Of a stretch of DNA of 64,000 nt, positions 1 to 16,287 are shown piece after piece. Position numbers and translations under genes: made by a program. Within the stretch, counting starts at the first letter, position 1. Each line of letters starts with the position of its first letter. The notes under the pieces are model-generated. The model was not told the DNA's origin. It saw nothing but the letters and a program-made list of their open reading frames with translations, and ran no database searches. The stretch is from a virus, in IMG/VR virus record IMGVR_UViG_3300042562_001017, positions 1-64,000 of that record; one strand, written 5' to 3'.

Positions 1-229
1 CATATTCTACTGTATTATCTGATAAATACTGATAATCAGCTAAATCTCTATTAACTAAAATTCTACGAGCAGTTTTATTTTTAGGAAGTGTTCTATTTAA
101 ATCAATTTTTTCTAAATCAAAATTGCAAGAATTTATATCAAATAAAGGAATAATATTTAAACTTCTTACATCTATTTCTACTTCAGGAAGTAAATTATTA
201 AAATGTCTTGTATTTCTAAGAATTCTCAT
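1..229 (-). CDS. Hypothetical protein, N-terminal part; runs off the left edge; coupled to the E1/ThiF gene
   Basis: Read manually: ATG at 229 overlaps the TGA of 226..909 (ATGA); frame MRILRNTRHFNNLLPEVEIDVRSLNIIPLFD... stays open to the window edge. Confidence 0.75.
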   Translation of the reverse strand, partial: MRILRNTRHFNNLLPEVEIDVRSLNIIPLFDINSCNFDLEKIDLNRTLPKNKTARRILVNRDLADYQYLSDNTVEY

Positions 230-909
230 ATACTTTCAAACATCATTAACGGAAAATTATAAGTTGTTTTAAAAGATAAATTAACTGGTAAATCTGGATT
301 TAAAGTTGTACCTACATAATTACAAAATAATGCTGTCATTATACTTGCGATAGCCATACCACTAAAAGTAGTTGCTTTCATACTACAAGCAGCATCTTCA
401 ACTTCAGAATCATCAAATAAAGTTCTTTCGTATTCTTTTTCTTTTCCTTTTGTTACACAATAAACTTCTCCTGTGGTGAGTGCCATTCTTCCATCAATAA
501 AAAGTTCTCTATCATCTTCAGCTTTCCATTTATCAAAAGCTAATTTTCTTGCAGCCATATTGTCAAAACAAGAAAATACTATTGGACCAGTCAAACTTTT
601 ATCAGTATATTTTTCATTTAAAGAAATTATATTAGGTTTATCACATAATAAATTAACTAAACTATTAATACTATCAAGTTTTCTCATTCCAATATCAGTA
701 TTAGCATACATTTGACCAGCTAAATTTACTTCATCAATTAAATCATAATCGTATAAATGTAAATTACATTCTAGTCTAGCAAGATTAAGGGTCAGCCATG
801 AGCCGATACCCCCTAATCCTAATACTAATACTTCTACATTTGGTTTGTAAAAGTAAGCTTCTGAAAATCTTACTGTACTTTGTTTAATTGTTTTTATTCC
901 CATACCCAT
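226..909 (-). CDS. ThiF/E1-like ubiquitin-activating (adenylating) enzyme
   Basis: Rossmann VLVLGLGGIGSW, DYDLIDEVNLAGQ, SCFDNMAAR, IDGRM; candidate catalytic Cys175 (DAACS); no Zn CxxC pairs. Confidence 0.9.
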   Translation of the reverse strand: MGMGIKTIKQSTVRFSEAYFYKPNVEVLVLGLGGIGSWLTLNLARLECNLHLYDYDLIDEVNLAGQMYANTDIGMRKLDSINSLVNLLCDKPNIISLNEKYTDKSLTGPIVFSCFDNMAARKLAFDKWKAEDDRELFIDGRMALTTGEVYCVTKGKEKEYERTLFDDSEVEDAACSMKATTFSGMAIASIMTALFCNYVGTTLNPDLPVNLSFKTTYNFPLMMFESI

Positions 910-2057
910 TTGTCCATCTCCTCTATAATTAATTTTGTTGTTGGATGATTTCTGAAACTACTTACTTTTAGAAAATTAATACAATCTATCCATATATCAT
1001 TTAGATTACTTGTATCATCGTAATCGTCAGAAGTAATTGAAAAGAAGTCAAATATATCATGTGCATTATTTATTCTAATTTCAATAAATTCTTTAACTTC
1101 TTTGTTGTTTTTAAATTTCCCTTTGTTTTTAGGAATTAGATTATCTAAATAACCATGTAAAGGAGAAGAATACTCTTGATTATAATTAAAATAAAAAGGC
1201 ATATCTTCTATAGTATAGTTAATATCAATTAATCTTTTAATAAAATTTACAGCTTGAGAATCCCAAGTTAATTTATCTTCAGTTCTTTCTTTGTTTTTTT
1301 CGTCAAATAATTTACCTTGTTTGTAATTATTTTGTTTATAATTTACATTATAACCATAAGTATCGTAATTATCATTCCATGTATTATTTAACGTAGAAAA
1401 AGTTTGTACTGGTTTAGCTGCAATTACTTTTTCATATTGTCTAACAAAGAAATCATCAATTAAATTAGAACTTTCAGCAAATATTTCCATTTCATAATAA
1501 AATGTAACTTGTTTATTTGGTGAACTTATCATTTGTTCTACTCCGTGTCTATCTTTAAATTTTATTGTCCTACCTTCAATTTCACCAATGAATGCAATTC
1601 TAGCGCAATATTCATTTTTGTTATTTACAATTAACGAAAGGTAGTAGTTATAATTAGGAGCATTATCTGTAAGTTCTTCATTGTCAGTTGCACTAAAGAA
1701 AACTGCCATGTTGTTATGTGAATGAATGTGACTCATTGACCATTCCATAAGTTCTGGTTTTTCCATCAAAGCTTCTGTAAAAGAAGGAGAAGAAAAATCA
1801 TATTCTGTATAACCTGAAGTGCCTTTATCTAATAGCAATATATATTCAGCTTTACATGTAAATTGTTCTGGATTTTGTAAATCACCTTCACTAGTATGAT
1901 ACAATACACCTGACCATTCTACTAATGGCATTTTAGAACATAAATATTTAATTTGGTCAATTACAGTTTGACTCAATATTAATTTACCTTTTTTCTTAGA
2001 GAACTCAGTCAATTCTGAATAAGGGTTTTTTTTCAAGGAAGTTATTTGATTTGTCAT
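894..2057 (-). CDS. JAB/MPN+ (JAMM) metalloprotease with long C-terminal extension
   Basis: E47 (VEWSG) plus H112-x-H114-x7-S122-x2-D125 (HIHSHNNMAVFFSATD) is a full JAMM motif. Confidence 0.88.
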   Translation of the reverse strand: MTNQITSLKKNPYSELTEFSKKKGKLILSQTVIDQIKYLCSKMPLVEWSGVLYHTSEGDLQNPEQFTCKAEYILLLDKGTSGYTEYDFSSPSFTEALMEKPELMEWSMSHIHSHNNMAVFFSATDNEELTDNAPNYNYYLSLIVNNKNEYCARIAFIGEIEGRTIKFKDRHGVEQMISSPNKQVTFYYEMEIFAESSNLIDDFFVRQYEKVIAAKPVQTFSTLNNTWNDNYDTYGYNVNYKQNNYKQGKLFDEKNKERTEDKLTWDSQAVNFIKRLIDINYTIEDMPFYFNYNQEYSSPLHGYLDNLIPKNKGKFKNNKEVKEFIEIRINNAHDIFDFFSITSDDYDDTSNLNDIWIDCINFLKVSSFRNHPTTKLIIEEMDKWVWE

Positions 2058-3309
2058 TTATAATATTATTTATTTTGTCGATTAATTGACTTTTTATACT
2101 TTGATAATGAAGTCTATATACATCTAATTCTCCAGAAAAAATTGTTTCAGCTGAAGTTTTGTTTAAAGAATAGTCAATTGTAAGTGTACCAAGTGTTTTT
2201 CCGTTAAAAGTAAAAAAGTTACTTCCAACAATTTCTGTAGTATTACTAGTATTTTTATCACTTTTGTTTAGTTTATCTAAAGAAATATAATTTCTGTTAA
2301 TAGCATAAAAAGAATTAACTTCATCTAAAGAAGAATCACCTATATAAACTTTATTTCTATCTATATCTAAAATTAAATTATTAAATTTATTTGCCATTAA
2401 ACTTTTTATCATTTCTTCACGAAATACGGAATAAGGTACATTTTCAGTTGTATTATTAGAACGAATATCACTAATTTTAATATAAGGTCCGCCTTCTAAA
2501 GATTCCCAAGAAAGATAATTTTCTAAAGCTACACAATAACTTATAGCAAATTCTTCACTAGAAATTGGGATATTTCTATATTTACTTAGCAATCCTTCAC
2601 CTAAACAAGTATTTCTCCATTCATCAAATCCTCTTGAAAAATGAGAAAAGACATATGAAGAAGAATATTCTTCTTGAGATGCTTTAGTTCTTGTACCACT
2701 AACTAATGAAAAACAAGGATTTGAGTTACTATTTTCTAAAAATTTACTAAAATACTTAGCAAAATCACTTAAATATTTTTGTCTAAATGTATTTTGATAA
2801 GATATATCAACTTTTAAATATACATCATAAATAGTATGTTGTCTTCCTGAACTATTTTGAACATGCTTTATTGGAAAATATACTATAAAAAAGCCATCTT
2901 GTATATCTACTCTATCTCCAAAAAAGTCTTTAATTACTTTTTTCCAATCAAAACTATCTTCAGTTTTATTTTCTGAATGTCTATTAAAAAATTCTTCATC
3001 AGTAAGATGTTCTTTTCCTGTTAATTTATTATAAGAGTTTAATGTAAAATCATCTAAAAAACCTCTACTAACATTATTGTGATATTCTTCAGATTGACTA
3101 TAACAATCAGGATTATAATCTATTTCAGGAATTTCATCTTCTATAACTATAACATCTTTTTTATCAATTGACCAGTGAGATATAGTTATATCATCAATAA
3201 TGTTATAATAATTATCAACTAATTCAAATTTTTCAAATATTCTATATATTACAGTTGCAGATGCACCTTGAGAGTTTTTTCCTGTAACTCCAGTTACTAA
3301 TATTTTCAT
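2005..3309 (-). CDS. Putative prokaryotic E2-like (UBC-fold) conjugating protein
   Basis: Central YVFSH223...TC235LGEG resembles the H...CLG active-site signature of Prok-E2 families; lies between Ubl and JAB genes. Confidence 0.6.
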   Translation of the reverse strand: MKILVTGVTGKNSQGASATVIYRIFEKFELVDNYYNIIDDITISHWSIDKKDVIVIEDEIPEIDYNPDCYSQSEEYHNNVSRGFLDDFTLNSYNKLTGKEHLTDEEFFNRHSENKTEDSFDWKKVIKDFFGDRVDIQDGFFIVYFPIKHVQNSSGRQHTIYDVYLKVDISYQNTFRQKYLSDFAKYFSKFLENSNSNPCFSLVSGTRTKASQEEYSSSYVFSHFSRGFDEWRNTCLGEGLLSKYRNIPISSEEFAISYCVALENYLSWESLEGGPYIKISDIRSNNTTENVPYSVFREEMIKSLMANKFNNLILDIDRNKVYIGDSSLDEVNSFYAINRNYISLDKLNKSDKNTSNTTEIVGSNFFTFNGKTLGTLTIDYSLNKTSAETIFSGELDVYRLHYQSIKSQLIDKINNIINDKSNNFLEKKPLFRID

Positions 3310-3329
3310 TTTTTTAATTTAAAAATAAA

Positions 3330-3362
3330 AAAACTCTCTTGTTGTATTAACAAGAGAGTTTT
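3330..3362 (-). terminator. Intrinsic terminator between Ubl and E2-like genes
   Basis: Perfect 14-bp stem AAAACTCTCTTGTT-GTATT-AACAAGAGAGTTTT with T-run on the minus strand. Confidence 0.8.
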
Positions 3363-3370
3363 AAATAAAA

Positions 3371-3775
3371 TTACAGACCTAATTCTCTTTTAATTTTAGC
3401 TGCTTCTGCTGCTAAACTTGAATCAGATGAACTAAGATGTGAAGTAGATGAATGTTCTCCATCTTCGATTTCGTTTAAGATGTCTTCAAAAGCTTCGTCA
3501 AATTTTTCTTTAAGACGAGCAATTACTGAAGCTACATCAATAGATTCAGAACCAGATTTAGTCTTAGCAGGAGTCAAAACTAATTTGAATTCACCTTCAG
3601 GAAGAATTGCTTCCATAGATACTAATTGATTTCTAGTTTCTACAATAGTAGCTACCATGTCTTCATTTAATAATGAAGGAATTTCTGCTCTAAGTTCTCC
3701 CCATGTTGAAGAAGTTGAAATTAAACTTTGCGATGTGTTTGTTTTTGTTGAAAAAACTACAATTTTTCTAGCCAT
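3371..3775 (-). CDS. Putative ubiquitin-like (beta-grasp) protein precursor with C-terminal extension
   Basis: Residues 1-75 show a beta-beta-alpha(TWGELR)-beta...beta pattern ending KLVLTPAKTKSG75, then a 59-aa acidic helical tail; first gene of the E2/JAB/E1 cluster. Confidence 0.65.
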   Translation of the reverse strand: MARKIVVFSTKTNTSQSLISTSSTWGELRAEIPSLLNEDMVATIVETRNQLVSMEAILPEGEFKLVLTPAKTKSGSESIDVASVIARLKEKFDEAFEDILNEIEDGEHSSTSHLSSSDSSLAAEAAKIKRELGL

Positions 3776-4725
3776 TTTGTTAAATTATTTTTTGTTTGAT
3801 TTATTCCATATGACCTTATATAGTCACTAATGTCTTTTTGATTTGATTCTATCGGAATAAATAAAGGAATCAAATTTGGATATTTATTAATTACAGCATC
3901 TGCTGCTATATACCCAGCTTCATCATTATCAAAATTAATTATTATTTGGTCATAATTATTTTGTAAATGAGGTAAATGGATTTCCCATTTAGATAAAGCT
4001 TCAGAATGTGGAGCAACTGATTCGTGCTCTAAAAAATCATAAACCATAACATCTTTTTTACTTTTTGTTATGATTAATAAATTACTCTCATATCTAAGTT
4101 GCTCTAGTCCTTGTAACATCGAGGAATTTATGTTGCTCACAAATCTGAATTCTTTTCTCTTATAATGATACATTTTCCATTTACCATCTTCTAAATATCC
4201 TAAACAAGGGTCGCTATTTCTATAACTATAAACTTGTTTACCATTAATCCAATACATTGCTACACTATAGACATTATGTCTTTTGCAAATATTTGCGGTT
4301 AGATGAAAAGATTTAAGATAATCAATATCTTGTTTAGTATAATTTTGAATTCTACAATCAATTAGTGTTCCTTCTTTAACTAATTTTGGTATATATACAT
4401 AATCTGATTTTACATAATCACTTCCTTTACCTAAAAAATCTTGATATACCATTTCTAGTACCTTCGGGTAAGATATATTATACATATCTTTAAGTATTGT
4501 AAAGCAATTATATACTTTTTTTCTAGCAAAATCAGTTAACCACCAATAACCAGATTGTTCAAAAAACTTACAACCTGCATTTACATCATGTCTTGATGGA
4601 TTTGTATATAAAGTTAATGAATCTGGAGTTAAATTTGTATAGTATTTCCAAATATCTTCTTGTGATATTTTACTTAATAAATAATTTGGAGTTAAATATT
4701 CAGGTTTATCGTTTATACTATACAT
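3757..4725 (-). CDS. DNA primase (TOPRIM), crAss-type
   Basis: NPSRHD N-terminal motif, LLIITKSKKDVM, IIINFDNDEAG (DxD), KDISDY. Confidence 0.85.
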   Translation of the reverse strand: MYSINDKPEYLTPNYLLSKISQEDIWKYYTNLTPDSLTLYTNPSRHDVNAGCKFFEQSGYWWLTDFARKKVYNCFTILKDMYNISYPKVLEMVYQDFLGKGSDYVKSDYVYIPKLVKEGTLIDCRIQNYTKQDIDYLKSFHLTANICKRHNVYSVAMYWINGKQVYSYRNSDPCLGYLEDGKWKMYHYKRKEFRFVSNINSSMLQGLEQLRYESNLLIITKSKKDVMVYDFLEHESVAPHSEALSKWEIHLPHLQNNYDQIIINFDNDEAGYIAADAVINKYPNLIPLFIPIESNQKDISDYIRSYGINQTKNNLTKWLEKL

Positions 4726-4749
4726 AATTTAAATCATTTTTTGTTTTTA

Positions 4750-5283
4750 CTAAAATGCTTCTGGAACAAAATTAGCTATTTCATCATTAGAAGTAGGAGC
4801 AGCTTTAGTTATTTTCTCAGTACTACTAATTTTTAAAGTACCAGCATCTTTAGCAATAAAACCTACGTATTTAGGAAAACCTAAATTACCTCTATCATCA
4901 AATAATAACTTGATTTCAAAAGTTTTACCGTTATAATTGTCAGCTGCAATACGAATGATTTCGTTAGCATATTCTTGAAAAGTAGAAACATTACCTACTA
5001 CAATACTATCTTCAGCTACAAACTTAGATAAAATATGCTTAATGCGCTTACTCATGTTAGCAACTTTACTTTCTGCTTTATCGTCAGAAGATTCTACAGG
5101 CCATTCTACGTGTCTAAATGTTTCACCTTTAGCACCTTTAAAATGAAAAGCTAAAACGTCTTTACCTGTTCCGTCTTTCTTTGCATTCTCGTAAGAGATT
5201 TTTTCGATGATTACTCCACTATGGATTCCACCGTCAAAACGATTGTTTTCGTCAATCGTTAGGTTTTTTGATATTTCGTACAT
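4750..5283 (-). CDS. Putative ssDNA-binding protein
   Basis: Beta-rich OB-like pattern, flexible tail ending ...FVPEAF; between primase and recombinase. Confidence 0.5.
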   Translation of the reverse strand: MYEISKNLTIDENNRFDGGIHSGVIIEKISYENAKKDGTGKDVLAFHFKGAKGETFRHVEWPVESSDDKAESKVANMSKRIKHILSKFVAEDSIVVGNVSTFQEYANEIIRIAADNYNGKTFEIKLLFDDRGNLGFPKYVGFIAKDAGTLKISSTEKITKAAPTSNDEIANFVPEAF

Positions 5284-5290
5284 ATATTAA

Positions 5291-5560
5291 TTAATTTACG
5301 TGTGATTCTGATTCAACATTTTGAGAAAAAGCTTCTGTAAAAGGAGTCATCTCAACTGCTTCATTTACTACATCATTTACAATTGTATCATCTACAATAG
5401 TATAAGTAGCATGTTGTTTTCTACTAATTTTTAAACCAAAAGTTGTCATAATCTTTTTGATTTCTGTTTCTGGCAACTCATACTTAGCTGCTAACTCTTT
5501 GCGAGTCATTTTTGTTTCTGTAACGTCTGTTACAAATTGTGATTTAATAATCTGCTTCAT
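5291..5560 (-). CDS. Small HTH-like hypothetical protein
   Basis: MTRKELAAKYELPETEIKKIM is helix-turn-helix-like. Confidence 0.5.
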   Translation of the reverse strand: MKQIIKSQFVTDVTETKMTRKELAAKYELPETEIKKIMTTFGLKISRKQHATYTIVDDTIVNDVVNEAVEMTPFTEAFSQNVESESHVN

Positions 5561-5566
5561 CTTTTT

Positions 5567-6169
5567 TTAATTAATAATTTTTACATCTCCGTCTTCAGTA
5601 ATGCTTACATTACTTGCATTTGTTACATCTACCATTTCTTCAACAGTATATAGACCTAGTAACATGTCTGGTGCGATACGATTTGCACCTAAAGATAAAC
5701 AACGAGCGTAAAGCATTTGCTTAGGCATCTTAACCCAATTGTCTTTAGTAGTCCAGCCTGCTTTAACAGCATCAGACCAATAAAAATTTGTAGTTTCTGT
5801 AACGTTTCCTCTGTAAAATTCAATGGTAGTTACTCTATCTTTTATTTCTACTCCATTACTATCAACTCCTCTTACTACAAGTTCGCCATCTTTTATTGTT
5901 TTTATAGATATACCATTTCTCCACATCAAAGCACCTAATGCTTTAGATGAAAGAGCTAATCTACCTTGAATAGAATAAATTTGATGAAAAGCTTGCATAG
6001 GCTTCATTCCTAAATCTTTACCGTATTGAGCGATAGCAAATGCTTGCTCAATTGTTTTGATGTTAGAAGGAAGTACCTTTGAGTCAATAAGTAATTGTAA
6101 TTGTTCCATTTCGTTAGCAGGAACTGGCTTTGTGATTTGTTGTTCTTGAACAACTATTGCATCTGTCAT
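5567..6169 (-). CDS. RecT/Bet-like ssDNA annealing protein
   Basis: GKDLGMKPMQA..IYSIQGR; WVKMPKQMLYARCLS; PDMLLGLYTVEEM. Confidence 0.75.
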   Translation of the reverse strand: MTDAIVVQEQQITKPVPANEMEQLQLLIDSKVLPSNIKTIEQAFAIAQYGKDLGMKPMQAFHQIYSIQGRLALSSKALGALMWRNGISIKTIKDGELVVRGVDSNGVEIKDRVTTIEFYRGNVTETTNFYWSDAVKAGWTTKDNWVKMPKQMLYARCLSLGANRIAPDMLLGLYTVEEMVDVTNASNVSITEDGDVKIIN

Positions 6170-7101
6170 AAATTGAAATTGATTTGTCCTTGTTGTGGAG
6201 GGCTATCATATATTCTATTAATCGCTAAATTATGATACATAGCAATCTCACACAATGAACCCTCGCGTTGTTTTAAAATTTGAGTAATCAGTAGGTTTTT
6301 GGTATCTAGACTTTTATATCTACTAAGGTCATACATTTCTGGTCTATGTAATGCTAATACAAGTGTTGCACATTGCATAACACTATCTGCACCGAAAATA
6401 TAACTAGGAAGAATACCAGTAGTACCGACATCACTTCTCTCACCATCTTCTATTTTTCTATTAAGTTGAGACAAGAATACGTTAATACATTCTAGTTTGT
6501 TTTTTAATCTTACTCCAGCAAGCATTAGATTAGTAATTTTTTCTTCTTCTGTTTTCTCATTAGATGATGTTATCAAACGAGTATGGTCTACTATATTAAC
6601 TATAGTTCTGTTTGGAAATAATAACGCTACTTCTTCTACTTTGCTTTCCCATTGTTTATGATTAACAGGAATATCTCTAAAATACATAGGTATTTTTCTC
6701 AATTCGTTACCTGCATTAACAAGTGAAGCATAAGTATCTTCTTCTAAAGGTGTATTAGCAGATAACATTTCTTTTACAGGTAACATAGCTTCGGCAGAAT
6801 ACATACGAGCTACATTTTGCCATGATTTCATCTCGAATGACCAATAAATAAAAATTAAATCAGGATATTTAACCGCTAAATCTTTTACAAGTATAGTAAC
6901 AAAAGCACTTTTACCAACACCGCTTCTCGCTGGTATTACTAATTGGTCGCCTTTATATATACCAGTAATTTTATCATTTAGTTTTTCACTAAATGTTTTA
7001 AATGGTCTTAATTCTCCTGATTTATACTTACGTATAATTTCATTTGTTTCGTCTACAATTTCCGATATATGTTGTAGACCACTAATAGATAGATTTTCCA
7101 A
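6166..7101 (-). CDS. DnaB-like replicative helicase (SF4 C-terminal domain)
   Basis: Walker A ARSGVGKS, SFEM, IVDH, LSQLNR, KQREG. Confidence 0.88.
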   Translation of the reverse strand: MENLSISGLQHISEIVDETNEIIRKYKSGELRPFKTFSEKLNDKITGIYKGDQLVIPARSGVGKSAFVTILVKDLAVKYPDLIFIYWSFEMKSWQNVARMYSAEAMLPVKEMLSANTPLEEDTYASLVNAGNELRKIPMYFRDIPVNHKQWESKVEEVALLFPNRTIVNIVDHTRLITSSNEKTEEEKITNLMLAGVRLKNKLECINVFLSQLNRKIEDGERSDVGTTGILPSYIFGADSVMQCATLVLALHRPEMYDLSRYKSLDTKNLLITQILKQREGSLCEIAMYHNLAINRIYDSPPQQGQINFNL

Positions 7102-7666
7102 AGCCTTCTCCTTCCGATTCTTTAATTTTCTTTATACTTTCCCAAACTTTACCTGCTATAAATTTATCTATTTTCATATTTAGCAAGTTCTTTTCAATGG
7201 CGTAAGTTAATATTTCTTTAACTTCTTCATGCTTATTTTGAGAATTTTTAATAGCTTTTACATAATTTTTCTCTAATTCGTCTAAATCTACAGTTTTTGT
7301 AAAAACTTTTGTTGAATTTACCATAAAAGTATCTGGATATAATTCTAATAATTCTTCAAAAGCTTCGCCACCATTAATAAACATCAAATCTACAAATTTA
7401 CTTGTAAGTATAAGTTGGTCAAAAGCATAATCTTGAGATAAAGATATAACATATTCTTTGTTTACTAAATCCTTTATCTCATCTTTAGTCCAACCAGCTC
7501 CCTCATGACTCCATTTATATATTAAACCTCCTTTGGTAAATTTCAAAGATGCACCTTGTTTTACCATTTTCTCAGTATATAATAAATAAAGCAGAAGGAA
7601 TTGATTGGTCTTTAACTTGTTTTTACATAGAAATTCTACGTAATTTTCTGGGTTATCTAACAGCAT
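7082..7666 (-). CDS. Hypothetical replication-region protein
   Basis: 194-aa ORF overlapping the helicase start; possible winged-helix N-terminus. Confidence 0.6.
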   Translation of the reverse strand: MLLDNPENYVEFLCKNKLKTNQFLLLYLLYTEKMVKQGASLKFTKGGLIYKWSHEGAGWTKDEIKDLVNKEYVISLSQDYAFDQLILTSKFVDLMFINGGEAFEELLELYPDTFMVNSTKVFTKTVDLDELEKNYVKAIKNSQNKHEEVKEILTYAIEKNLLNMKIDKFIAGKVWESIKKIKESEGEGFGKSIY

Positions 7667-7721
7667 TTGTTTTTCTATTTAAATTTCTTATACGAAATTA
7701 ATTCCCAGAAAACAAGAATAT

Positions 7722-8084
7722 TTATGAATATTTAGCTATAAGTTCTTTTTCTAAACTTGCTAAATCTTTTTTATCAAATTCTAATGACAAAACTATATCA
7801 CTATATATTTCATTATATGAACTAATTGGATTTTGTTTAGGTACCCAATTAATAATGTTTTTATTACTTATATAACTTGATTTCATATAATAACCTAAAT
7901 TAGAAAGTTGTGCACTTAAAGAACTTAATTTAGCAATTAATTCTTTACTCTCTTGATTAAGAGCATTATAACCATCTATTAATTTAGTTATTTTAGTTGG
8001 AATAACTACTTCTTTTTTGTTATCTACTACTTTAGATATTCTTTGAGCTAATATTTGTATAGCTTCTTTACTTACTCTTGCCAT
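7722..8084 (-). CDS. Hypothetical protein (coiled coil)
   Basis: ORF track, co-oriented, tight packing. Confidence 0.65.
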   Translation of the reverse strand: MARVSKEAIQILAQRISKVVDNKKEVVIPTKITKLIDGYNALNQESKELIAKLSSLSAQLSNLGYYMKSSYISNKNIINWVPKQNPISSYNEIYSDIVLSLEFDKKDLASLEKELIAKYS

Positions 8085-8089
8085 AATTT

Positions 8090-8194
8090 TTATTTTTTAT
8101 TTAATATTTCAAAATCTTCTTCTATTTCTATAACTTGTTCATTTTCTAATATCCAATAAGCAGTTGATACATCTTCTGCTGAGTAATTATTCAT
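8090..8194 (-). CDS. Small acidic hypothetical protein (34 aa)
   Basis: Read manually: MNNYSAEDVSTAYWILENEQVIEIEEDFEILNKK fills the gap between neighbours. Confidence 0.5.
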   Translation of the reverse strand: MNNYSAEDVSTAYWILENEQVIEIEEDFEILNKK

Positions 8195-8627
8195 CAATTG
8201 TTGTATTGGAATCTCTTTTTTTATTAAACAAATTATCTCTGTAATCTTTGACGTTTTGCTCATAATACTTGTAATTTGGAAAAATGTTATCTTTTAATTT
8301 TAAACTATTATCTATAGTTTTAATACCATAAATAATAGTAGAATGATTTTTATTACCTAAAAGTTTTGCTATTTTAGACAAATTAAAACCACTATTTTCA
8401 TAAGTTAATTTAGAAATCATCATTCTAGAAAAAGCTAAATTTTGTTTTTTACAAGAAGAAATTAAATCATTATAAAGTATATTTTCTTTTTCACAAACTA
8501 TTTTAACTATATAATTAAAAATCATATCGTTTACATCTTTATTTTGACTTTCTAAAAAAACTATTTCTGCTCTAATTCTAGAAAGTTCTTTATAAAGAAT
8601 TTCTAACTTTTTAATAATATCACTCAT
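8187..8627 (-). CDS. DnaA C-terminal (domain IV) HTH-like protein
   Basis: LAFSRMMISKL..NLSKIAKLLGNKNHSTIIYGIKTI matches the DnaA-IV signature (IG..FGGRDHSTV.HA). Confidence 0.75.
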   Translation of the reverse strand: MSDIIKKLEILYKELSRIRAEIVFLESQNKDVNDMIFNYIVKIVCEKENILYNDLISSCKKQNLAFSRMMISKLTYENSGFNLSKIAKLLGNKNHSTIIYGIKTIDNSLKLKDNIFPNYKYYEQNVKDYRDNLFNKKRDSNTTIDE

Positions 8628-9828
8628 TTATTAACTGTTTTAACTGTTCTAAATCATCTAACCATAAACATTGTGTTCCTTTACTTGCTTTACGTAACCA
8701 AACTTCATCTTGAGAATTTTTAACATATAAATTAATTACATATGCTTTTTTACCTTCTTTAGCTCTACAAATTCTACCAGACCTTTGACCATTTTGAATA
8801 CGTTTACTTGTTCTTGAGCAAATAATAGCCATATCAGCATCAGGAGCATCAAAACCTTCATCCATAGATTTAGCAGTACATATGCAATTAACTTTAGTTC
8901 GTTTATCCATAAATTTACGTAAAGCTTCTCTATTAGCTTTAACTCCATTTTTAGAATGATAACTTACTGCTTTTTCACCTATCTCATCACATAATTGTTG
9001 AGTAAAATCTACAGATTCACTAAAACAAATCATATGTTTATCAAGTTTAACTAACTCTTTAGCTATAGTCATTTTAGAATGAGCATGATAAAGAAAAGTT
9101 TTACGTTCTCTCATATTACGATTCCATTCTAAAGCAGATATCATAACTCTTTCAACAGGTATGTTGAATTCTCTTGCATGAGCTTCTCTAATGTTTTTGT
9201 TTGTTAAACAAGACATAGCTTTATCAAAGTCATGACCAAAAGTAGCAAAGTATTTGTTAAAAGCTTTATGTAATGTATCGTAATGATTTCTGTCTATATC
9301 ATCTAATTCTACTCCAAAATTAATTGTAATAAAATCAGCAACCCAACCATTAGTTTTACATTCTTCAGCAGTAACTTTACCTACAGATACTATATTTTTT
9401 CTATTAAGAAAAGCTATATGGTTTGCTTCTAATGTTGCAGATAAACCTAAAAACCAGCTGTATCTAGTTTCATTAATTACTTTAGTAAAATGTAAAGCAT
9501 TATCATTTGTCATTCTATGAACCTCATCACAAATTAACAAATCGCAACTTCTTTCAAATTTTATATATGTATTAATAACAAATACTTCTACGTTTTTAAG
9601 TTTAAATGCATCAATAAAACCTTTTTTAGATTTTGTCCAACTATTCTTTAAAGTTGTTGTTGGTACTATTACATGAGTAGTTCTATTTGCATCACGTCTA
9701 TTGCATTCTTGTATAGCAAGAATAGCTAATCTTGTCTTACCAAAACCTGTAAAAGCTTCTACAAAACCCATAGCTTTATGTTGAATCCAATTGTCTATTA
9801 TGTCTTCTTGTCTTTTATTTCTATCCAT
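8620..9828 (-). CDS. Superfamily 2 (DExH) helicase
   Basis: AFTGFGKT, DEVH, GLSAT, MDEGFD, QRSGRICR. Confidence 0.9.
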   Translation of the reverse strand: MDRNKRQEDIIDNWIQHKAMGFVEAFTGFGKTRLAILAIQECNRRDANRTTHVIVPTTTLKNSWTKSKKGFIDAFKLKNVEVFVINTYIKFERSCDLLICDEVHRMTNDNALHFTKVINETRYSWFLGLSATLEANHIAFLNRKNIVSVGKVTAEECKTNGWVADFITINFGVELDDIDRNHYDTLHKAFNKYFATFGHDFDKAMSCLTNKNIREAHAREFNIPVERVMISALEWNRNMRERKTFLYHAHSKMTIAKELVKLDKHMICFSESVDFTQQLCDEIGEKAVSYHSKNGVKANREALRKFMDKRTKVNCICTAKSMDEGFDAPDADMAIICSRTSKRIQNGQRSGRICRAKEGKKAYVINLYVKNSQDEVWLRKASKGTQCLWLDDLEQLKQLINE

Positions 9829-9829
9829 T

Positions 9830-11695
9830 TTATAATAGTTTTAATTGTTGTATATCTTCTATATTGTTTATAATTTCTCTAGCTTTACTTATATAATAAC
9901 TATAATCAATATTGTATTCTTCTATTGGTAATTCATAATAATTATTAAAATAAGTTACTTTCCATTCTTTAATTAACTTATTTCCTTTCATAATAGGAGC
10001 TTCTACTTGAGCAGTAGTATTATCTGCATATTCTTTAATAAGATAACCTCCACGTTTAGAAACAAAATATCTAACTATTTTAGATAGTTTTTTTCTTTCT
10101 AACTTACTATCAATTACTTGATAGAGAACAAATTTAGATTTACCTTTTTCAGGTGAACTGCTTGCTTTAACTCCAGCACAAAAATCATATATGTTTTTAT
10201 GATTACGTATTGTATCTTCAATAGCTATATTTTTTACAAAATAATTATAAATTGCTCTAGGTATAATAGAATATGATTTATTTTTATGAAGAGGAATGTT
10301 TTCAAATTCAAACATACCTTTACATTTAGTTTTACCATTACTATATATACTTGTGTAATTGTTTACATCTTTTATAATCATTTTACTATAAGTATCATGT
10401 TCTAAAGGTATAGTTGTTAAATCTTCCCACCATTTACATATAGACATATATTTATCCATATCTTCATTAGGTATTAAAAACTCACAACCATCTGTATTTA
10501 TCATAATTACTTTACTACCAGCTATTTCAGTTGTAACTTTTTCTACTAGCATTGATAAAAGCAATTGACCATTAATACATATAGTTAAACCTACCAAAGG
10601 GTCTTGAAGAAAACTATATTCATCATTCATTAAACCATAACTTGCATTTAATATAATTTTTAGTATATAATTTTTAGGATTAGATTTTGGTATTTCTTTT
10701 CTTTTAAGATAAAAACCTTTATATAATTTTAAAAATGCATCTTTAGGTAAATGAGCAGGACATAAATCATTTTGAAAATCTAAATGAGGATAGTAACTTG
10801 TTGCATCTACAGTTTTAATTGTATGAGTTTGAGTAGTTACAACAATACTATTTTTAGGAGCAGCATGTAAACCACCTAAACCATAATCTATTTCTATTCC
10901 TTGATAAGGTAATGTAAAAGTAAACTTTTCATCAGGTCTTATTTTAAGTTTATTAAACTCATTTAAAACTAAATTAAAAAGTTCTGTTTCAAACTTAACA
11001 TATAGAAATATTATATCTTTTACATTTATAACATCTCTTTTAGTTCTTAAAGCTTTTAACTCATTTTCTGGTATTCCAGTTTCATCAGATAAATATCTTA
11101 AGAATAATTTCTTAGCCATATCTGGTTCAGTAGAATTCATTAAATTTACTTTTTCAGATTCACTCAAAGTTTTTCTTAATTCTATTTCATGATAATAAGT
11201 TTTGTAAAGAAATTTAGTTGCTTGAACGTCATTTAGATTGTAATATAAAACTGATTCTAAATCTAACGTATCAGGTATTTCTTCTATATTAGGAAAATCT
11301 AACATAAATTCACACCATTTTAAACCTGTACGTTTAGCAGATGTACTCAAACTTAATGCTTTAAATAAATCTAATTGAAGTATACTTAATTTCCATTCAG
11401 GATAATCAGGTCTTCTGTTTTCAGATAAAATAATTAAATCTGAATAATCTCTAAGTTGCTGAGTTGTAGAATTTCTATTTTTTAAGAAATATTCTATTAT
11501 TTGACTATCGTAATGTAAATTATTATAACCAATTAAGGCTATAACTTCATTTGCTAAAAAATTAAAAAATTCTTTTCTATCATCTCTATCTTTAGTAATA
11601 ACAAAAACTTTTGTTTCTTCACTATCTTTATCAATAAATGTAGCAGTAAATATTTCTTTAAATACTTCTAAATCATATATCCATGTTTTTTTCAT
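9830..11695 (-). CDS. polB: DNA polymerase family B (crAss-type) with 3'-5' exonuclease
   Basis: Exo YDLEVF, GYNNLHYD, YNLNDV; pol DATSYYP, KIILNASYG, NTDG; no intein or intron visible. Confidence 0.9.
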   Translation of the reverse strand: MKKTWIYDLEVFKEIFTATFIDKDSEETKVFVITKDRDDRKEFFNFLANEVIALIGYNNLHYDSQIIEYFLKNRNSTTQQLRDYSDLIILSENRRPDYPEWKLSILQLDLFKALSLSTSAKRTGLKWCEFMLDFPNIEEIPDTLDLESVLYYNLNDVQATKFLYKTYYHEIELRKTLSESEKVNLMNSTEPDMAKKLFLRYLSDETGIPENELKALRTKRDVINVKDIIFLYVKFETELFNLVLNEFNKLKIRPDEKFTFTLPYQGIEIDYGLGGLHAAPKNSIVVTTQTHTIKTVDATSYYPHLDFQNDLCPAHLPKDAFLKLYKGFYLKRKEIPKSNPKNYILKIILNASYGLMNDEYSFLQDPLVGLTICINGQLLLSMLVEKVTTEIAGSKVIMINTDGCEFLIPNEDMDKYMSICKWWEDLTTIPLEHDTYSKMIIKDVNNYTSIYSNGKTKCKGMFEFENIPLHKNKSYSIIPRAIYNYFVKNIAIEDTIRNHKNIYDFCAGVKASSSPEKGKSKFVLYQVIDSKLERKKLSKIVRYFVSKRGGYLIKEYADNTTAQVEAPIMKGNKLIKEWKVTYFNNYYELPIEEYNIDYSYYISKAREIINNIEDIQQLKLL

Positions 11696-11710
11696 AACTT
11701 TTAAATTTAA

Positions 11711-11740
11711 AAAACTCTAGGCCGTAATACCTAGAGTTTA
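11711..11740 (-). terminator. Intrinsic terminator closing the ncRNA region upstream of polB
   Basis: AAACTCTAGG-8nt-CCTAGAGTTT stem followed by T-run on the minus strand. Confidence 0.7.
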
Positions 11741-11760
11741 CACACACATTTTACCCTTAA

Positions 11761-11957
11761 AGTCTAATTACGTAGACCAATAATGACTTTCCAACAGTCC
11801 TTCTGTGACTCTCCGTACTCATGTCTTTTACCTAAATGGTTACTTGAACTTTCTGTTTACTGTTTCATCACTAATGGAAAGTGCTTTCTTACTGTTTCAT
11901 GCAAACCTATAAAATAAAATTGCGTTGTAGAATCTCTCTACACACCATACAGAAAGC
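11761..11957 (-). ncRNA. Putative structured ncRNA downstream of the tRNA-like element
   Basis: Long-range stems GCTTTCT/AGAAAGC and ACTTTCCA/TGGAAAGT; 12-nt repeat TTACTGTTTCAT at 11857 and 11889; no ORF in the track. Confidence 0.4.
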
Positions 11958-11961
11958 TTTG

Positions 11962-12074
11962 CAATCAGGACAGGAATCGAACCTGTAATTTACTTGTAGC
12001 GACATCACCATACCGCTCTTCCAATCACTTCTTTTTACGGAAGCAAGTGTGTCTACCAATTCCACCACCTGACT
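11962..12074 (-). ncRNA. tRNA-like RNA with an expanded (47-nt) anticodon region
   Basis: Acceptor AGTCAGG/CCTGATT, D-arm GTGGAATTGGTAGACAC, T-arm ACAGG-TTCGATT-CCTGT, stem ACTTG/CAAGT enclosing 47 nt; no CCA. Confidence 0.7.
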
Positions 12075-12078
12075 ATGT

Positions 12079-12208
12079 CCCAAACTTCACTTAATGCGTC
12101 CATTAAGGATAGGTTTGGTAATCCACCTTAACTTATGCCTTGGGCTATTCGTTTACGTGGAGATAAGACCACTGAAGTGTGCTGTTCTTACGGGAAGCAT
12201 CGTGGTAC
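12079..12208 (-). ncRNA. Putative structured ncRNA upstream of the tRNA-like element
   Basis: Stems ACCAC/GTGGT, TGCT/AGCA, TCCAC/GTGGA, and CCAAAC/GTTTGG enclosing CTTAATG-GACG-CATTAAG; GC higher than flanks. Confidence 0.4.
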
Positions 12209-12221
12209 TTTTTTAAATATT

Positions 12222-13085
12222 TTAAAATATATATCTTATTATATTCCAAGGAATTATTTCATTATGAATCTTTTTAAATTCATCAATGTATTGATACTTT
12301 AGATTGTGTTTGTAACGTATATTTATACCTCCATATTGAGAAATTTTATTTTCTTGTATTTCAGGATTCCATAACAAATCTTCACCTTTTACATTATTAT
12401 TTAAATTATCAATATGTTTATTTTTATTATGAGTAAGAAATATAACTTCACATTTAACTTGATTTTTATAAGAATCGTTTATTAAAATGTCTACTAATTG
12501 AAATAAATCTTTGTATTCTTCTAACCAATTATCAGTTACAATTACAGGAGAAAAATTAATATGAACATCATAACCTGCTTCAATAAAAGTATTTATAGCT
12601 TGTATTCTATCAACAATTTTACTTGTATTAGGTTCTAATAAATCAGAATATTTTTGAGGCATTAATGAAAATCTTATTCTTATTTTCTTTTCAGGATTAT
12701 AATTTAATAAATTTACATTTACATATTTAGTTGCAAATGAACCCATTGCTTTAGGACTATCTTTAAAAAAATCAAAAATATATTTCCAATTATGATATTT
12801 TAAATGTAAAGCAAAATCTTCATTACAACTTATATCATATGTTATCAATGAGTTATGAGTTTGATTAGGTTTGTCTACAATAATAAACATTGAATGATTA
12901 TTAATAGCTGTTAAAATATCTCCTGTATTTTTAGCAACATCTAATCCTTGAGGTTTATGACGTTTCATGTAGCAATAAGTACAATTAAATAAACAGCCAT
13001 GACCAAAGCTAGGTGATATGAAGTCAGTACTTCTACCACTTTCTCTAATAAGCATTGATTTTCTATTAATCTTTTTCATTTTCAT
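12222..13085 (-). CDS. Spore photoproduct lyase-like radical SAM enzyme
   Basis: GHGCLFNCTYCYMKRH (CxxxCxxC), FATKYVN, RIRFSLMP, EPNTS.I..RI.AI, NFSPVI as in the SplB family. Confidence 0.82.
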   Translation of the reverse strand: MKMKKINRKSMLIRESGRSTDFISPSFGHGCLFNCTYCYMKRHKPQGLDVAKNTGDILTAINNHSMFIIVDKPNQTHNSLITYDISCNEDFALHLKYHNWKYIFDFFKDSPKAMGSFATKYVNVNLLNYNPEKKIRIRFSLMPQKYSDLLEPNTSKIVDRIQAINTFIEAGYDVHINFSPVIVTDNWLEEYKDLFQLVDILINDSYKNQVKCEVIFLTHNKNKHIDNLNNNVKGEDLLWNPEIQENKISQYGGINIRYKHNLKYQYIDEFKKIHNEIIPWNIIRYIF

Positions 13086-13190
13086 TTAATTTAAAATCAG
13101 CAGAAGCAATTTTGAACGATATTCTGTTTTCTTTTGAACGATATTTTAATTCGTTTTCTAATTGCCACTCTTTCGAGTATCTGATAAATA

Positions 13191-13499
13191 TTATATTTCT
13201 TGTTCAGCTTTTATAAGCATTTCTGCTTTTTTAGCATAAACTTCTTTTCTTACAATCAGTTCTTCATCTAATTGTTCCAATAATTGTGTGTGTAAATCGC
13301 AAATATCGGCACATTTTTTGACTTGATAAAGAGCTTTTTCTTTAAAATTGTAATATTTGTTCATTAAAGAACTTGATATTTTTCTAGCTTCTATTAATTC
13401 TTCATCATTTAAAGTATTAATGTTTACTAAACTACCATTCTTCTTTTTCCAAAGAAGTTGGTCTTCTCTGTCTTTTGCTTGTATTTCTACGCCTTCCAT
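13191..13499 (-). CDS. Hypothetical protein
   Basis: ORF track; helical. Confidence 0.65.
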   Translation of the reverse strand: MEGVEIQAKDREDQLLWKKKNGSLVNINTLNDEELIEARKISSSLMNKYYNFKEKALYQVKKCADICDLHTQLLEQLDEELIVRKEVYAKKAEMLIKAEQEI

Positions 13500-13535
13500 C
13501 TAATTTTATATTTAAGGGTTTTTAAAATAAAAATA

Positions 13536-13559
13536 AAAGGGGGAAATTAATCCCCCTTT
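13536..13559 (-). terminator. Intrinsic terminator
   Basis: AAAGGGGGA-AATTAA-TCCCCCTTT directly after the stop of 13564..13998. Confidence 0.8.
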
Positions 13560-13563
13560 ATAA

Positions 13564-13998
13564 CTAAAATGTTCTTTCTGATTCTGCTGGAGCTAAACTA
13601 ACAGCTTCAGCGTTTAGAACAGTTGCGTCATTTTGCTTCAAATTACGGTTTGCGTAAGTTGTTGCATCTTCATTACTGAATACAACACAAGAATATTGAG
13701 TAACTTGTTTGTCACCAATAGCATAAGGAGTTGTTTGGAAAGTATGGAAAGAACCTTCAACGATGTCATTTACAGCAATGTTACTAAACAAAGCATCAGC
13801 TTTAATTAATACACCATCTTCTGTATGACCTTCACCCCATACATTTCTTGTTCTGTTGTTGTTGTTAGATTTAACACTAACTTCTCTACCATTTAATTTG
13901 ATAGTTTTGTCTAATTCCTTAAATACTACTACTTTGTAAGGACGGTTGTTTTTTGCAGTTTTAATTTCCGAAACTGATACGACTTGGATTAAATTCAT
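13564..13998 (-). CDS. Hypothetical, possibly OB-fold/SSB-like protein
   Basis: Beta-rich, KTAKNNRPYK hairpin, tail ending in Phe; flanked by terminators. Confidence 0.55.
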   Translation of the reverse strand: MNLIQVVSVSEIKTAKNNRPYKVVVFKELDKTIKLNGREVSVKSNNNNRTRNVWGEGHTEDGVLIKADALFSNIAVNDIVEGSFHTFQTTPYAIGDKQVTQYSCVVFSNEDATTYANRNLKQNDATVLNAEAVSLAPAESERTF

Positions 13999-14062
13999 AA
14001 TTTTGATTTTTAAATTGTTGTTAATTGTTATTAGTTTTTATTTGTTTTTGTTTAAATAAAAT

Positions 14063-14111
14063 AAAACTTTGTGTTTCTAATCTACATTTCGTCTATGAAA
14101 CACAAAGTTTT
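14063..14111 (-). terminator. Long-stem hairpin/terminator
   Basis: 15-bp perfect stem AAAACTTTGTGTTTC/GAAACACAAAGTTTT with 19-nt loop after 14119..14463. Confidence 0.65.
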
Positions 14112-14118
14112 AAGTTAA

Positions 14119-14463
14119 TTATTTTTTAGTTGTACGTCTGCTAACTGTTTTCTTAGGAGCAGCAGGTGCTTCTTCTCTTGCAGATGTCTTAACTCCTTCT
14201 GGAAACAACTCAGCACCTAATTCTAAAAGGTCTAAAAAGTTTCTAGTAGCAGCTTCAGCTTCGTATTGTGCTTCAAGAATAGCTTGAGTATCAATAGGAA
14301 ATTGACCTTTTAATGCTTCAACTCTACTTTCAGCAGCTAAATTGCGTTTTTCAGCATCTAAAGCATCTTTAGTTAATTGTAAATGAGCTTCACGAGCATT
14401 CATTAAAGCTTTGCTTGCATCTTTAGAGTCTTTAGACTGTTGTAATCTTTGTACGTAATTCAT
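14119..14463 (-). CDS. Hypothetical coiled-coil protein with basic tail
   Basis: ORF track; Ala/Glu-rich helix, ends APKKTVSRRTTKK. Confidence 0.7.
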   Translation of the reverse strand: MNYVQRLQQSKDSKDASKALMNAREAHLQLTKDALDAEKRNLAAESRVEALKGQFPIDTQAILEAQYEAEAATRNFLDLLELGAELFPEGVKTSAREEAPAAPKKTVSRRTTKK

Positions 14464-14467
14464 AATT

Positions 14468-14689
14468 TTAAAATTTAAATGGTTTTTGTTTAATAAAACT
14501 TATCTTTTTCAAGATAGATTTTGGATAAACGATTTGATTAAATGTTGATTTTAAAGTTTTATGTGCTGGCATAAAAATTTCTTTTTCAACTACTGGATAA
14601 ATGAATGTAAAACTAGAAGCAGTCTTGCTTTTGTTATACCATACTGATTTTAAATCATTTACTGTCTTTTTTCTTGTTAAAGTACTCAT
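14468..14689 (-). CDS. Hypothetical protein
   Basis: ORF track, ATGA coupling. Confidence 0.6.
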   Translation of the reverse strand: MSTLTRKKTVNDLKSVWYNKSKTASSFTFIYPVVEKEIFMPAHKTLKSTFNQIVYPKSILKKISFIKQKPFKF

Positions 14690-15018
14690 TTTGTTTTATA
14701 TGGATAATGGTCAATAACTTTTATTTTACCTGTATAACTAAATTTCCTTTTAACATTATTTAAAATTCTACCTAGTTTTACTACAATACCTTCTTCATCT
14801 TTAATAGTTTCAGGAACTAATTGGATATATTTACTGTTTTTAGAAATTCCATATAAAGGATTTTTAACTATTTTTTGTAAATATTGTCTTCTTTGTCTTC
14901 TGTTAGGGTCTTTACTTGGATTAAATCCTAAAGCTAAAGGTTCAGTGTATTGTTTTTGATTGTCTTCTAATATTGGTGTTCCATCAGGATTACGCAAATA
15001 TCTTATTGGTTTGTTCAT
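14686..15018 (-). CDS. Hypothetical basic protein (NRRQRR motif)
   Basis: ORF track. Confidence 0.65.
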   Translation of the reverse strand: MNKPIRYLRNPDGTPILEDNQKQYTEPLALGFNPSKDPNRRQRRQYLQKIVKNPLYGISKNSKYIQLVPETIKDEEGIVVKLGRILNNVKRKFSYTGKIKVIDHYPYKTK

Positions 15019-15218
15019 TATATGTGACTATAAGTTAAAAAGTTAGCTAAATAATTTTCTGTGTTTACTTGAATGTTTTCATTTACATATATTTTTTCAA
15101 TATTGTTTTCAAATAAATAATTTTTGATTTTTTCTAAATCATGCTCAAAAGCTTGAATTAAAAATAAATGTGTTGTTACTTTCATAATTAAATTAATTAA
15201 AATATACCTCTTTTTCAA
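15018..15218 (-). CDS. Hypothetical protein (start uncertain; internal ATG of MKVTT likely)
   Basis: ORF track. Confidence 0.5.
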   Translation of the reverse strand: MKKRYILINLIMKVTTHLFLIQAFEHDLEKIKNYLFENNIEKIYVNENIQVNTENYLANFLTYSHI

Positions 15219-15233
15219 GAGGCATATTTAGTT

Positions 15234-15380
15234 TTAAATTGAATAACCGATTTTAAAATAAGCATTGTTTCCTATAAGCTTAGCAGTATAAACTACATAC
15301 TTTTGCATTAAATAAGATTTGATTGCTTGAAAAACACCATAAGTGCTGATGCTTAACATAAATGTTCTAGTTTTTTTCAT
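15234..15380 (-). CDS. Small hypothetical protein (48 aa)
   Basis: Read manually: MKKTRTFMLSISTYGVFQAIKSYLMQKYVVYTAKLIGNNAYFKIGYSI. Confidence 0.5.
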   Translation of the reverse strand: MKKTRTFMLSISTYGVFQAIKSYLMQKYVVYTAKLIGNNAYFKIGYSI

Positions 15381-15537
15381 AAAGTTTAATGTTTAAATTT
15401 CCCCATTCAGGAAGATTGTTTGAATAACTTAAAATACTACTTAGGAATTCATTTTTCAATGATTTTGCTTGCGGTGTGTTACGCATTTGTTTTGCAATTT
15501 TTGCAATTTTGTTTGTTGTTTTTTTTTCTTCAGTCAT
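15367..15537 (-). CDS. Small hypothetical protein (56 aa)
   Basis: Read manually: MTEEKKTTNKIAKIAKQMRNTPQAKSLKNEF... Confidence 0.45.
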   Translation of the reverse strand: MTEEKKTTNKIAKIAKQMRNTPQAKSLKNEFLSSILSYSNNLPEWGNLNIKLYEKN

Positions 15538-15541
15538 AATT

Positions 15542-15889
15542 TTAAAAATTAAAAATAATTTCTATAATTTTCTTTTTGTTTTCAGCACGTAATTTTTTAA
15601 TTAGTTTTACTACTATTTCAAACTGGTCATTTTCACTTAAATTTTCTAAAGGTCTTCTAATAGAATTTTTTTGATTATGTAAAGTATACATACCAGAACT
15701 AGTAATTGTAGATAATACAGCATTTGCATTTTTTCTTAAATGATTGTAATATCTACCTTTAACTACATTAAATTTTACATTTAATTCTGCCGAAACTTGT
15801 TCTAAAGCATAAGAAATGTTTGAAGGATACTTACTTATATATTCTAATATAAGATTATCTTCTTCTTTTGTAAGTAACGTTTGTCTCAT
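15542..15889 (-). CDS. Myb/SANT-like HTH DNA-binding protein
   Basis: LTKEEDNLILEYI...VSAELN...VKGRYYNHLR resembles a Myb-like repeat. Confidence 0.55.
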   Translation of the reverse strand: MRQTLLTKEEDNLILEYISKYPSNISYALEQVSAELNVKFNVVKGRYYNHLRKNANAVLSTITSSGMYTLHNQKNSIRRPLENLSENDQFEIVVKLIKKLRAENKKKIIEIIFNF

Positions 15890-15928
15890 TATGTTTTTTA
15901 TTTAAAGGTTTTTGTGTGTAAAAATTAA

Positions 15929-16282: not shown

Positions 16283-16287
16283 TATTT

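Follow-up and report, generated by a model that had tools for sequence, protein, structure and literature searches.

Results

Layout of the locus and its occurrence in related phages

The window, by which we mean the whole 64,000-nt stretch of DNA that was analysed, derives from a crAss-like phage. Near its beginning, a gene for a small ubiquitin-like (Ubl) protein follows a DNA primase gene and precedes three genes whose products are an E2-like candidate, a JAMM/JAB metallopeptidase (JAB) and a minimal ThiF-type E1 (Table 1). This order of the Ubl gene and then E2, JAB and E1 had been claimed in an initial annotation that was made from the sequence and its open reading frames (ORFs), and the ORF coordinates bear it out. 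According to the ORF list, the Ubl and primase genes share 19 nt, at the start of the former and the end of the latter, and a gap of 61 nt separates the Ubl gene from the 434-aa E2-like gene. The Ubl gene is thus the last gene of an upstream replication-gene unit, and the hairpin that lies in the gap would terminate this longer transcription unit rather than a unit of the Ubl gene only.

Table 1. Coordinates of genes, protein segments and the hairpin in the first part of the window
Feature	Position in window	Strand	Basis
Block of co-oriented genes	1-18,300	-	
Toprim-type DNA primase	3757..4725	-	Pfam/ORF list; synteny common to related loci
Ubl precursor ORF, 134 aa	3371..3775	-	ORF list
Ubl domain, residues 1-75	3551..3775	-	AF2 model, Foldseek, G75 conservation
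C-terminal tail, residues 76-134, and stop codon	3371..3550	-	AF2 secondary structure, conservation, charge
Tail helix 1, residues 81-104	3535-3464	-	AF2
Ser-rich linker between tail helix 1 and helix 2		-	
Tail helix 2, residues 118-131	3424-3383	-	AF2; carries L..EA..I motif
Intrinsic-terminator-like element (stem and T-run)	3321..3362	-	Folding, window scan, related loci
E2-like candidate, 434 aa	2005..3309	-	Alignment of 19 homologues, AF2, VIA-align
JAMM/JAB metallopeptidase, 387 aa	894..2057	-	Conserved motif; weak Pfam Prok-JAB
Minimal ThiF-type E1, 227 aa	226..909	-	Pfam ThiF; invariant C175

Related loci were collected by scanning IMG/VR with the alignment of the 434-aa protein, which yielded 38 loci, 28 of them distinct when the window and Flavobacterium phage Fpv1 are included. 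All loci that extend far enough contain the Ubl gene, the gap and the E2-like, JAB and E1 genes, and where no 1.1-kb insert breaks them the three enzyme genes touch or overlap one another. The cultured phage crAss001 carries the cassette as gp79-gp76, with the annotations hypothetical, metalloprotease and ThiF, and the cultured phage FpV4 and its group carry it as well, in 29 records. A 70.5-kb IMG/VR contig matches the window, with 98% protein identity for the 434-aa gene, and a megablast search of window positions 1-9000 against phages returned 0 matches. In the literature that we searched, no description of a phage Ubl/E2/JAB/E1 cassette was found.

A fifth gene (window positions 2-229, minus strand) overlaps the end of the E1 gene and is present at its full length of 440 aa in locus L002 (8090-9412). 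Jackhmmer searches found it conserved only among the closest relatives, and it was kept out of the core cassette; possibly it encodes a rapidly evolving protein that works with the cassette, for example an adaptor for targets. Giant ORFs of ~1,550 aa are also present in the window.

Ubl domain and its conserved glycine

The Ubl precursor reads ...FKLVLTPAKTKSG75 and continues with SESIDV...KIKRELGL. K73-S74-G75 are encoded at 3559-3551, with the GGT codon of G75 at 3553-3551. The initial annotation had the Ubl domain end in a single Gly at residue 75, which the ORF confirms, and it had proposed an alignment of homologues as a check on whether the K-x-G is conserved. A full-library HMMER search (E <= 1e-3) gave 417 representative clusters at 50% identity, mostly 76-289 aa in length, and 150 of them were aligned to count conservation. 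G75 is invariant (150/150), K73 is kept in 147 and P59 in 146 of the 150, and the family motif is LP[ED]GxFxLxLxPxKxK[SA]G. One match, P0048, is a repetitive adhesin-like protein of 2605 aa with seven 'Ubl' stretches and was rejected as a compositional false match.

The AF2 model of the precursor (83 sequences) has a mean pLDDT of 86.8, with block means of 90-97 across residues 1-70. It places strands at residues 3-9, 14-20, 40-44, 49-51 and 63-69 and a helix at 25-31, and residues 70-80 form a low-confidence linker. When the model was compared with the PDB using Foldseek, the matches were mostly ubiquitin, ubiquitin variants and UBX domains (target-normalised TM ~0.68, rmsd ~2.4 A, ~78 columns), with E-values of only ~3e-3 because the model carries the extra tail. 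A profile search against PDB sequences gave chance-level rows only, no Pfam or PADLOC model matched, PHROGs gave no functional name, and scores in the ESM Atlas were at most 0.84 and uninformative. Residues 1-75 are thus predicted to adopt a ubiquitin-type beta-grasp fold. A beta-grasp that closes with an invariant K-x-G is a hallmark of activated Ubls, and cleavage behind the fold would turn the conserved G75 into the free C-terminus.

Predicted precursor form and the C-terminal tail

None of the 150 representatives ends at the conserved Gly. At least one residue always follows it; the median tail length is 66.5 aa, and the extremes are 1 and 212 aa. Ubls whose C-terminus has to be trimmed show such a pattern. 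Six representatives have only 1-3 residues beyond the Gly, and the short endings in the family include KSGL, KSGLN, KSGN, KSGSSI and KSGRIL. Tails of at least 30 aa are found in 140 of the 150 (mean net charge -8.9). The tail of the window protein has 59 residues, 14 of them Asp or Glu against 6 Lys or Arg, and is modelled as two helices, in agreement with its earlier description as an acidic helical tail. The question raised earlier, whether the tail is variable, has a mixed answer: its length and sequence vary widely, but positions in the helices are conserved. In helix 2, L121 is kept in 85/137, E124 in 100/138, A125 in 73/138 and I/L128 in 93/138 of the aligned sequences, and the hydrophobic periodicity of helix 1 is kept. 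The tail of phage Fpv1 (...RLAAEAKMFG) shares this type of ending.

The Ubl ORF of several related loci ends 1-6 codons past the Gly, and a small ORF in another frame comes next, upstream of the hairpin. This split form is clearest in one lineage, represented by two independent metagenome contigs (L026 and L029), where a separate tail ORF starts 4 codons past the Gly (MSEVIDFKEIL...EYEKLQRELGN). Among 1,618 small ORFs that were searched with a tail-only HMM, these two tail ORFs were the top matches (E = 0.004). Other split cases (L013, L027, L033 and L037) are suggestive only.

Some further features of the tails were seen. The small ORFs behind the short Ubl genes of L013 (5411-5665) and L027 (6001-6196) end in DDEVPF and PDLPF, respectively, which may resemble the acidic, protein-docking C-terminal tip of bacterial SSB. 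In longer tails, a SAP/HeH-like helix-turn-helix stretch directly follows the conserved Gly, as in P0140 (residues 79-108) and similarly in P0052, P0120, P0024 and crAss001 gp79 (L042 2301-2978). A Pfam scan of ten long-tailed members gave a single SAP match, that of P0140, at an E-value of 2e-4 that is below the cut-off. The SAP-like stretches and the SSB-tip-like endings hint at the tail as a protein- or DNA-docking element and not a mere cap.

These observations support the reading of the 134-aa protein as a precursor with a reactive G75. The natural fission in L026 and L029 argues for a domain boundary where the initial annotation had placed the cut, and for a tail that can work as a separate polypeptide. 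The members with 1-3 residues past the Gly and the split forms together indicate that the Ubl domain can work without a fused tail. The suggestion that the tail has a role of its own gains support from the conserved L121, E124 and A125 and from the separate tail ORF of one lineage, and the tail would accordingly be more than a cap.

Enzyme genes

Pfam identified a single ThiF domain in the 227-aa protein (residues 24-194, 1.7e-19). The G31xG33 nucleotide loop is kept, C175 is invariant in 26/26 homologues, and the protein is distantly similar to MoeB and UBA3. PADLOC gave only weak matches to E1-E2 models of the CBASS type, the best with an E-value of 3e-6 over ~80 residues. Since the protein is a bare adenylation domain that lacks the Cys-domain insertion of canonical E1s, its thioester chemistry is uncertain. 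In some lineages the E1 is 383-486 aa long (L014/L015/L039 8610-10043; L022 8150-9610; L042 5560-6711, which is crAss001 gp76) and carries an extra domain compared with the form of about 227 aa.

In the 387-aa protein, the JAMM motif E...HxH-x7-S-xx-D is complete, with 24-25 of 25 homologues keeping E47, H112, H114, S122 and D125. The Pfam match to Prok-JAB is weak (E 0.15), and searches against PDB sequences and PADLOC models gave no match. This protein is presumably the enzyme for both precursor trimming and deconjugation. In several relatives the JAB gene is split by an insert of ~1.1 kb, and in L006/L007 the E1 gene is split too (L001 8059-10351, which is Fpv1; L006/L007 7253-9564 and 9549-11479; L027 7196-9563; L011 7981-9170). 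In the insert of Fpv1 an endonuclease is annotated, encoded on the opposite strand, and the HxH motif marks the very start of the second piece of the JAB gene. Such inserts look like homing-endonuclease or intron-type insertions into catalytic genes.

The 434-aa protein has 25 invariant positions in 19 sequences, among them H223, C235 and W268-ESLEGGPY. No Pfam, PADLOC or PHROG match was found for it, Foldseek with its model returned nothing, and a profile search against PDB sequences gave chance-level rows only. Its AF2 model (pLDDT 84) shows, from residue 118 to ~270, a helix, a four-stranded meander, a loop with the Cys and a long helix. Exhaustive comparison of residues 118 to ~380 with VIA-align matched mainly E2 (UBC), UEV and RWD chains, at Z-scores of only 5.0-5.5. 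We use the name E2-like instead of E2 because what supports it is this modest fold match together with the invariant Cys.

A terminator-like hairpin between the Ubl and enzyme genes

A perfect 14-bp terminator between the Ubl gene and E2-JAB-E1 was part of the initial annotation and is present as described. The 5' arm AAAACTCTCTTGTT and the 3' arm AACAAGAGAGTTTT pair without mismatch around a 5-nt loop (AATAC) at 3362-3330, the T-run TTTATTTTT stands directly behind the stem at 3329-3321, and the ATG of the 434-aa gene lies 20 nt past the stem. A 76-nt stretch with the hairpin has a minimum free energy of -17.5 kcal/mol (z = -3.9), and 0/200 shuffled sequences fold as well. From its sequence, the element fits the definition of an intrinsic terminator as a stem-loop followed by a U-run.

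Across the 64-kb window, 13 sites at 9 places combine a perfect stem of at least 7 bp with a T-run; seven of these sites read with the local genes, and among the seven no perfect stem exceeds 14 bp. Other strong hairpins in the window are on the plus strand at 33185-33208, 35757-35788 and 54496-54525 and on the minus strand at 11739-11712, 13559-13536 and 15958-15929. One of these is located just before a tRNA-Met gene (33214-33286), and one follows a 445-aa gene (end at 35735) that may encode a structural protein expressed in abundance.

One uniform rule was applied in scanning the gaps of the related loci: the hairpin had to reach at least -10 kcal/mol in stability and to end at a T-run. This energy-based scan replaced a stricter perfect-stem scan, which gave 11/28 and was an under-count. 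A terminator-like hairpin was found in the gap between the Ubl and E2-like genes at 23 of the 28 distinct loci, against 1.76 expected from the same-strand density of such sites (0.59 per kb). In 21 loci, the distance from the start of the T-run to the E2-like ATG is 8-27 nt. At L012, L033 and L034 a hairpin is present that failed the T-run criterion of the scan, and no hairpin was found at L020 and L040, where the gaps are 19 and 12 nt. The element is also present in crAss001 (-28.4 kcal/mol, z -5.7) and Fpv1 (-16.3 kcal/mol, z -3.9). The stems are unrelated in sequence between loci. Conservation by position and shape, not by sequence, strongly supports the view that the terminator matters to these phages.

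Sequence of the Ubl gene in an RNA library

A single metatranscriptome, from a wetland, contained any of the sequence, with 5% of the sampled words. Its only two contigs on positions 900-4725, of 151 nt each and with at least 99% identity, cover 3430-3580 and 3665-3811 and fall on the Ubl gene. Metatranscriptome contigs of this kind cannot show transcript ends or levels, and the empty enzyme genes are not usable as evidence; what the contigs establish is limited to the presence of Ubl sequence in an RNA library.

Discussion

Proposed pathway

We propose that the locus encodes a Ubl modifier precursor, a JAB/E1/E2-like pathway that handles it, and enzymes whose expression is limited by read-through, and we give this proposal as a whole a probability of about 0.6. 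The JAMM peptidase would cut after the invariant K-S-G75. With the Gly carboxylate freed by this cut, the small ThiF-type E1 with its invariant C175 could adenylate it, and the tag would then pass to the invariant C235 of the E2-like protein. The same cut would release the conserved, acidic two-helix tail, which may have a function of its own. On the RNA, the intrinsic terminator right after the Ubl gene would halt most transcripts, so that only read-through RNA would reach the overlapping E2-like, JAB and E1 genes. If the enzymes are reached by read-through only, a substrate-like tag would be in excess over its catalysts, and the layout probably gives much tag and little enzyme. The support presented here consists of the fold, the invariance of G75, a Gly that is never terminal, the catalytic residues, and the hairpin and its position. 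Cleavage by JAB, conjugation, its targets and the degree of read-through are what we infer.

Stranded RNA-Seq data from a one-step infection are public for crAss001 (BioSamples SAMN16810643-SAMN16810654; 10.1101/2020.12.02.408625), in which the replication genes belong to the 'middle' class, and the authors of that study proposed the host RNA polymerase as the transcriber of this class. If the host polymerase transcribes the unit, it would be sensitive to terminators such as these. Since the Ubl gene shares its transcript with the primase gene, a large amount of tag would depend on a promoter farther upstream.

Alternative readings

The hairpin might instead be a mere end or 3' stabiliser of the replication-gene unit, with the enzymes made from a promoter of their own or at another time and with no graded read-through. 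That the Ubl and primase genes overlap, so that the terminator ends a long unit, fits such an arrangement; a sigma-70 scan does not cover the promoters of Bacteroidota phages, and TATTTTTA behind the stem loosely resembles a Bacteroidota -7 box when it is compared with TAnnTTTG, which we take to be the consensus. The 8-27 nt from T-run to ATG, however, leave no room for a -33/-7 promoter and a leader, and any promoter farther upstream must transcribe through the hairpin. With so little sequence behind the stem, a separate enzyme promoter is unlikely and read-through would be the simplest reading; we regard the arrangement without it as unlikely. A different division of labour, in which the tail is the main product, the Ubl domain is a cleavable leader or chaperone like the ubiquitin of eukaryotic ribosomal protein fusions and JAB only frees the tail, would leave the E1 and the E2-like protein unexplained, and it has to accommodate tails that vary widely in length and sequence (1-212 aa), with six representatives almost tail-less. 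Conserved tail helices, a stand-alone tail ORF upstream of the same terminator in L026 and L029, and the small ORFs of L013 and L027, with their presumed likeness to the SSB tip, nevertheless speak in its favour. We think it rather unlikely as a replacement for the proposed pathway, with which it is compatible as an added role.

Two further readings concern the glycine. The reactive end could lie at the far C-terminus (...RELG-L), which would make the whole 134-aa protein the modifier: the window protein ends in ELGL, that of Fpv1 in MFG, and 82/140 long tails have a Gly within their last 6 residues. As a candidate for the reactive end, this Gly was rejected, for the aligned position is a Gly in 31 of the 99 sequences that occupy it as compared with 150/150 for G75, only 18/140 long tails end in Gly, and tail-less members exist; we hold this reading to be very improbable. 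Strict linkage to an E1, a JAB and a Cys-bearing E2-like protein across loci, the existence of short (1-3 residue) and split forms and the invariant K-x-G at the end of the beta-grasp all weigh against a protein that is never cleaved, in which the beta-grasp is an N-terminal domain, for example of a replication adaptor, G75 is a hinge, and E1 and JAB act elsewhere. This last possibility, which we find distinctly unlikely, is favoured by the lack of any member that ends at the Gly, by the conserved tail helices, by the SAP/HeH-like nature of some longer tails (for P0140, SAP at E 2e-4, below the Pfam cut-off), and by the precedent of lambda TAPI, a Ubl with a C-terminal domain (PMC1779556).

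Comparison with known systems

The principles of the proposed pathway, namely JAB-trimmed Ubl precursors and attenuators within operons, are known; the phage-owned setting in which they would be combined is new. Eukaryotic Ubls are also made as precursors, such as ubiquitin-ribosomal protein fusions, polyubiquitin with an extra end residue, and the pro-forms of SUMO and NEDD8; a dedicated peptidase removes the extension past the Gly, and in the fusions the released part is functional. Both these proteins and the phage Ubl have a beta-grasp that ends in Gly and carries a C-terminal extension, but the phage Ubl has a single Gly (K-S/A-G) instead of Gly-Gly, its extension is acidic and helical, and trimming would presumably fall to the JAMM peptidase of the same operon. 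Terminators within operons set gene ratios in E. coli rpsU-dnaG-rpoD and rplJL-rpoBC, and terminators follow the major capsid genes of phages. Like these attenuators, the phage element consists of a hairpin and a U-run between co-oriented genes with probably no promoter behind it, and the genes that follow would depend on read-through. It differs in that position and shape, but not sequence, are conserved across a phage family.

As judged from its genes, the phage cassette would have the four roles of the bacterial Bil system (BilABCD) in the same order (Ubl, E2, JAB and E1), and its Ubl, like that of Bil, is probably made as a precursor with residues past the conserved Gly. The JAB of this system, BilC, has been shown to cut the Ubl precursor after the conserved Gly and to deconjugate, its Ubl has up to nine residues beyond that Gly, and BilD comprises an inactive and an active adenylation domain, a Cys domain and a Zn site (10.1101/2023.09.26.559546). 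The phage E1, in contrast, is a single 227-aa adenylation domain without the BilD architecture, and the phage tails have a median of 66.5 residues and conserved helices where those of Bil have at most nine residues. Because the tail is far longer than that and is conserved, it may not be a simple cap; such a long conserved tail, sometimes separately encoded, is the one feature without clear precedent in bacterial systems. The settings differ as well, as the cassette is located in a phage replication module and Bil is a bacterial anti-phage defence operon. Pfam and PADLOC-DB v2.0.0 of 2023, which may lack Bil models, did not assign the phage proteins to the Bil sequence families. Among phages, Iyer et al. 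(2006) predicted that the TAPI Ubl of lambda and T1 is released from its C-terminal domain by the neighbouring TAPK JAB (PMC1779556). TAPI, likewise a phage Ubl, resembles the present family in the conserved Gly with which its beta-grasp ends and in the C-terminal domain behind it, but it is ThiS/MoaD-like, has no E1 or E2 partner and lies in a tail-assembly module.

Implications

A possible but doubtful extension of the proposal is that the Ubl gene is two genes in one, with cleavage at G75 giving both an activated tag and an acidic helical peptide that acts as a separate factor. The released tail could then serve for docking or targeting and guide the tag, or the enzymes, to a host protein or the replication machinery, and if this is true, the phage would have a tagging system that is aimed by its own pro-peptide.

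To our knowledge, work on bacterial ubiquitin-like tagging has up to now concerned defence against phages (Bil, CBASS Cap2/Cap3). In the present case, the tagging kit would belong to the virus. The Ubl family is large, with 417 clusters, and among its members are crAss001 from the gut and the FpV4 group of phages of fish pathogens. The system would also be tractable, in that G75 is predicted to be the reactive residue, trypsin digestion at the natural K73 would mark target lysines with a Ser-Gly remnant, and a conserved terminator sets the tag gene apart from the enzymes. The targets of the tag would reveal what a lytic phage gains from protein tagging during replication.
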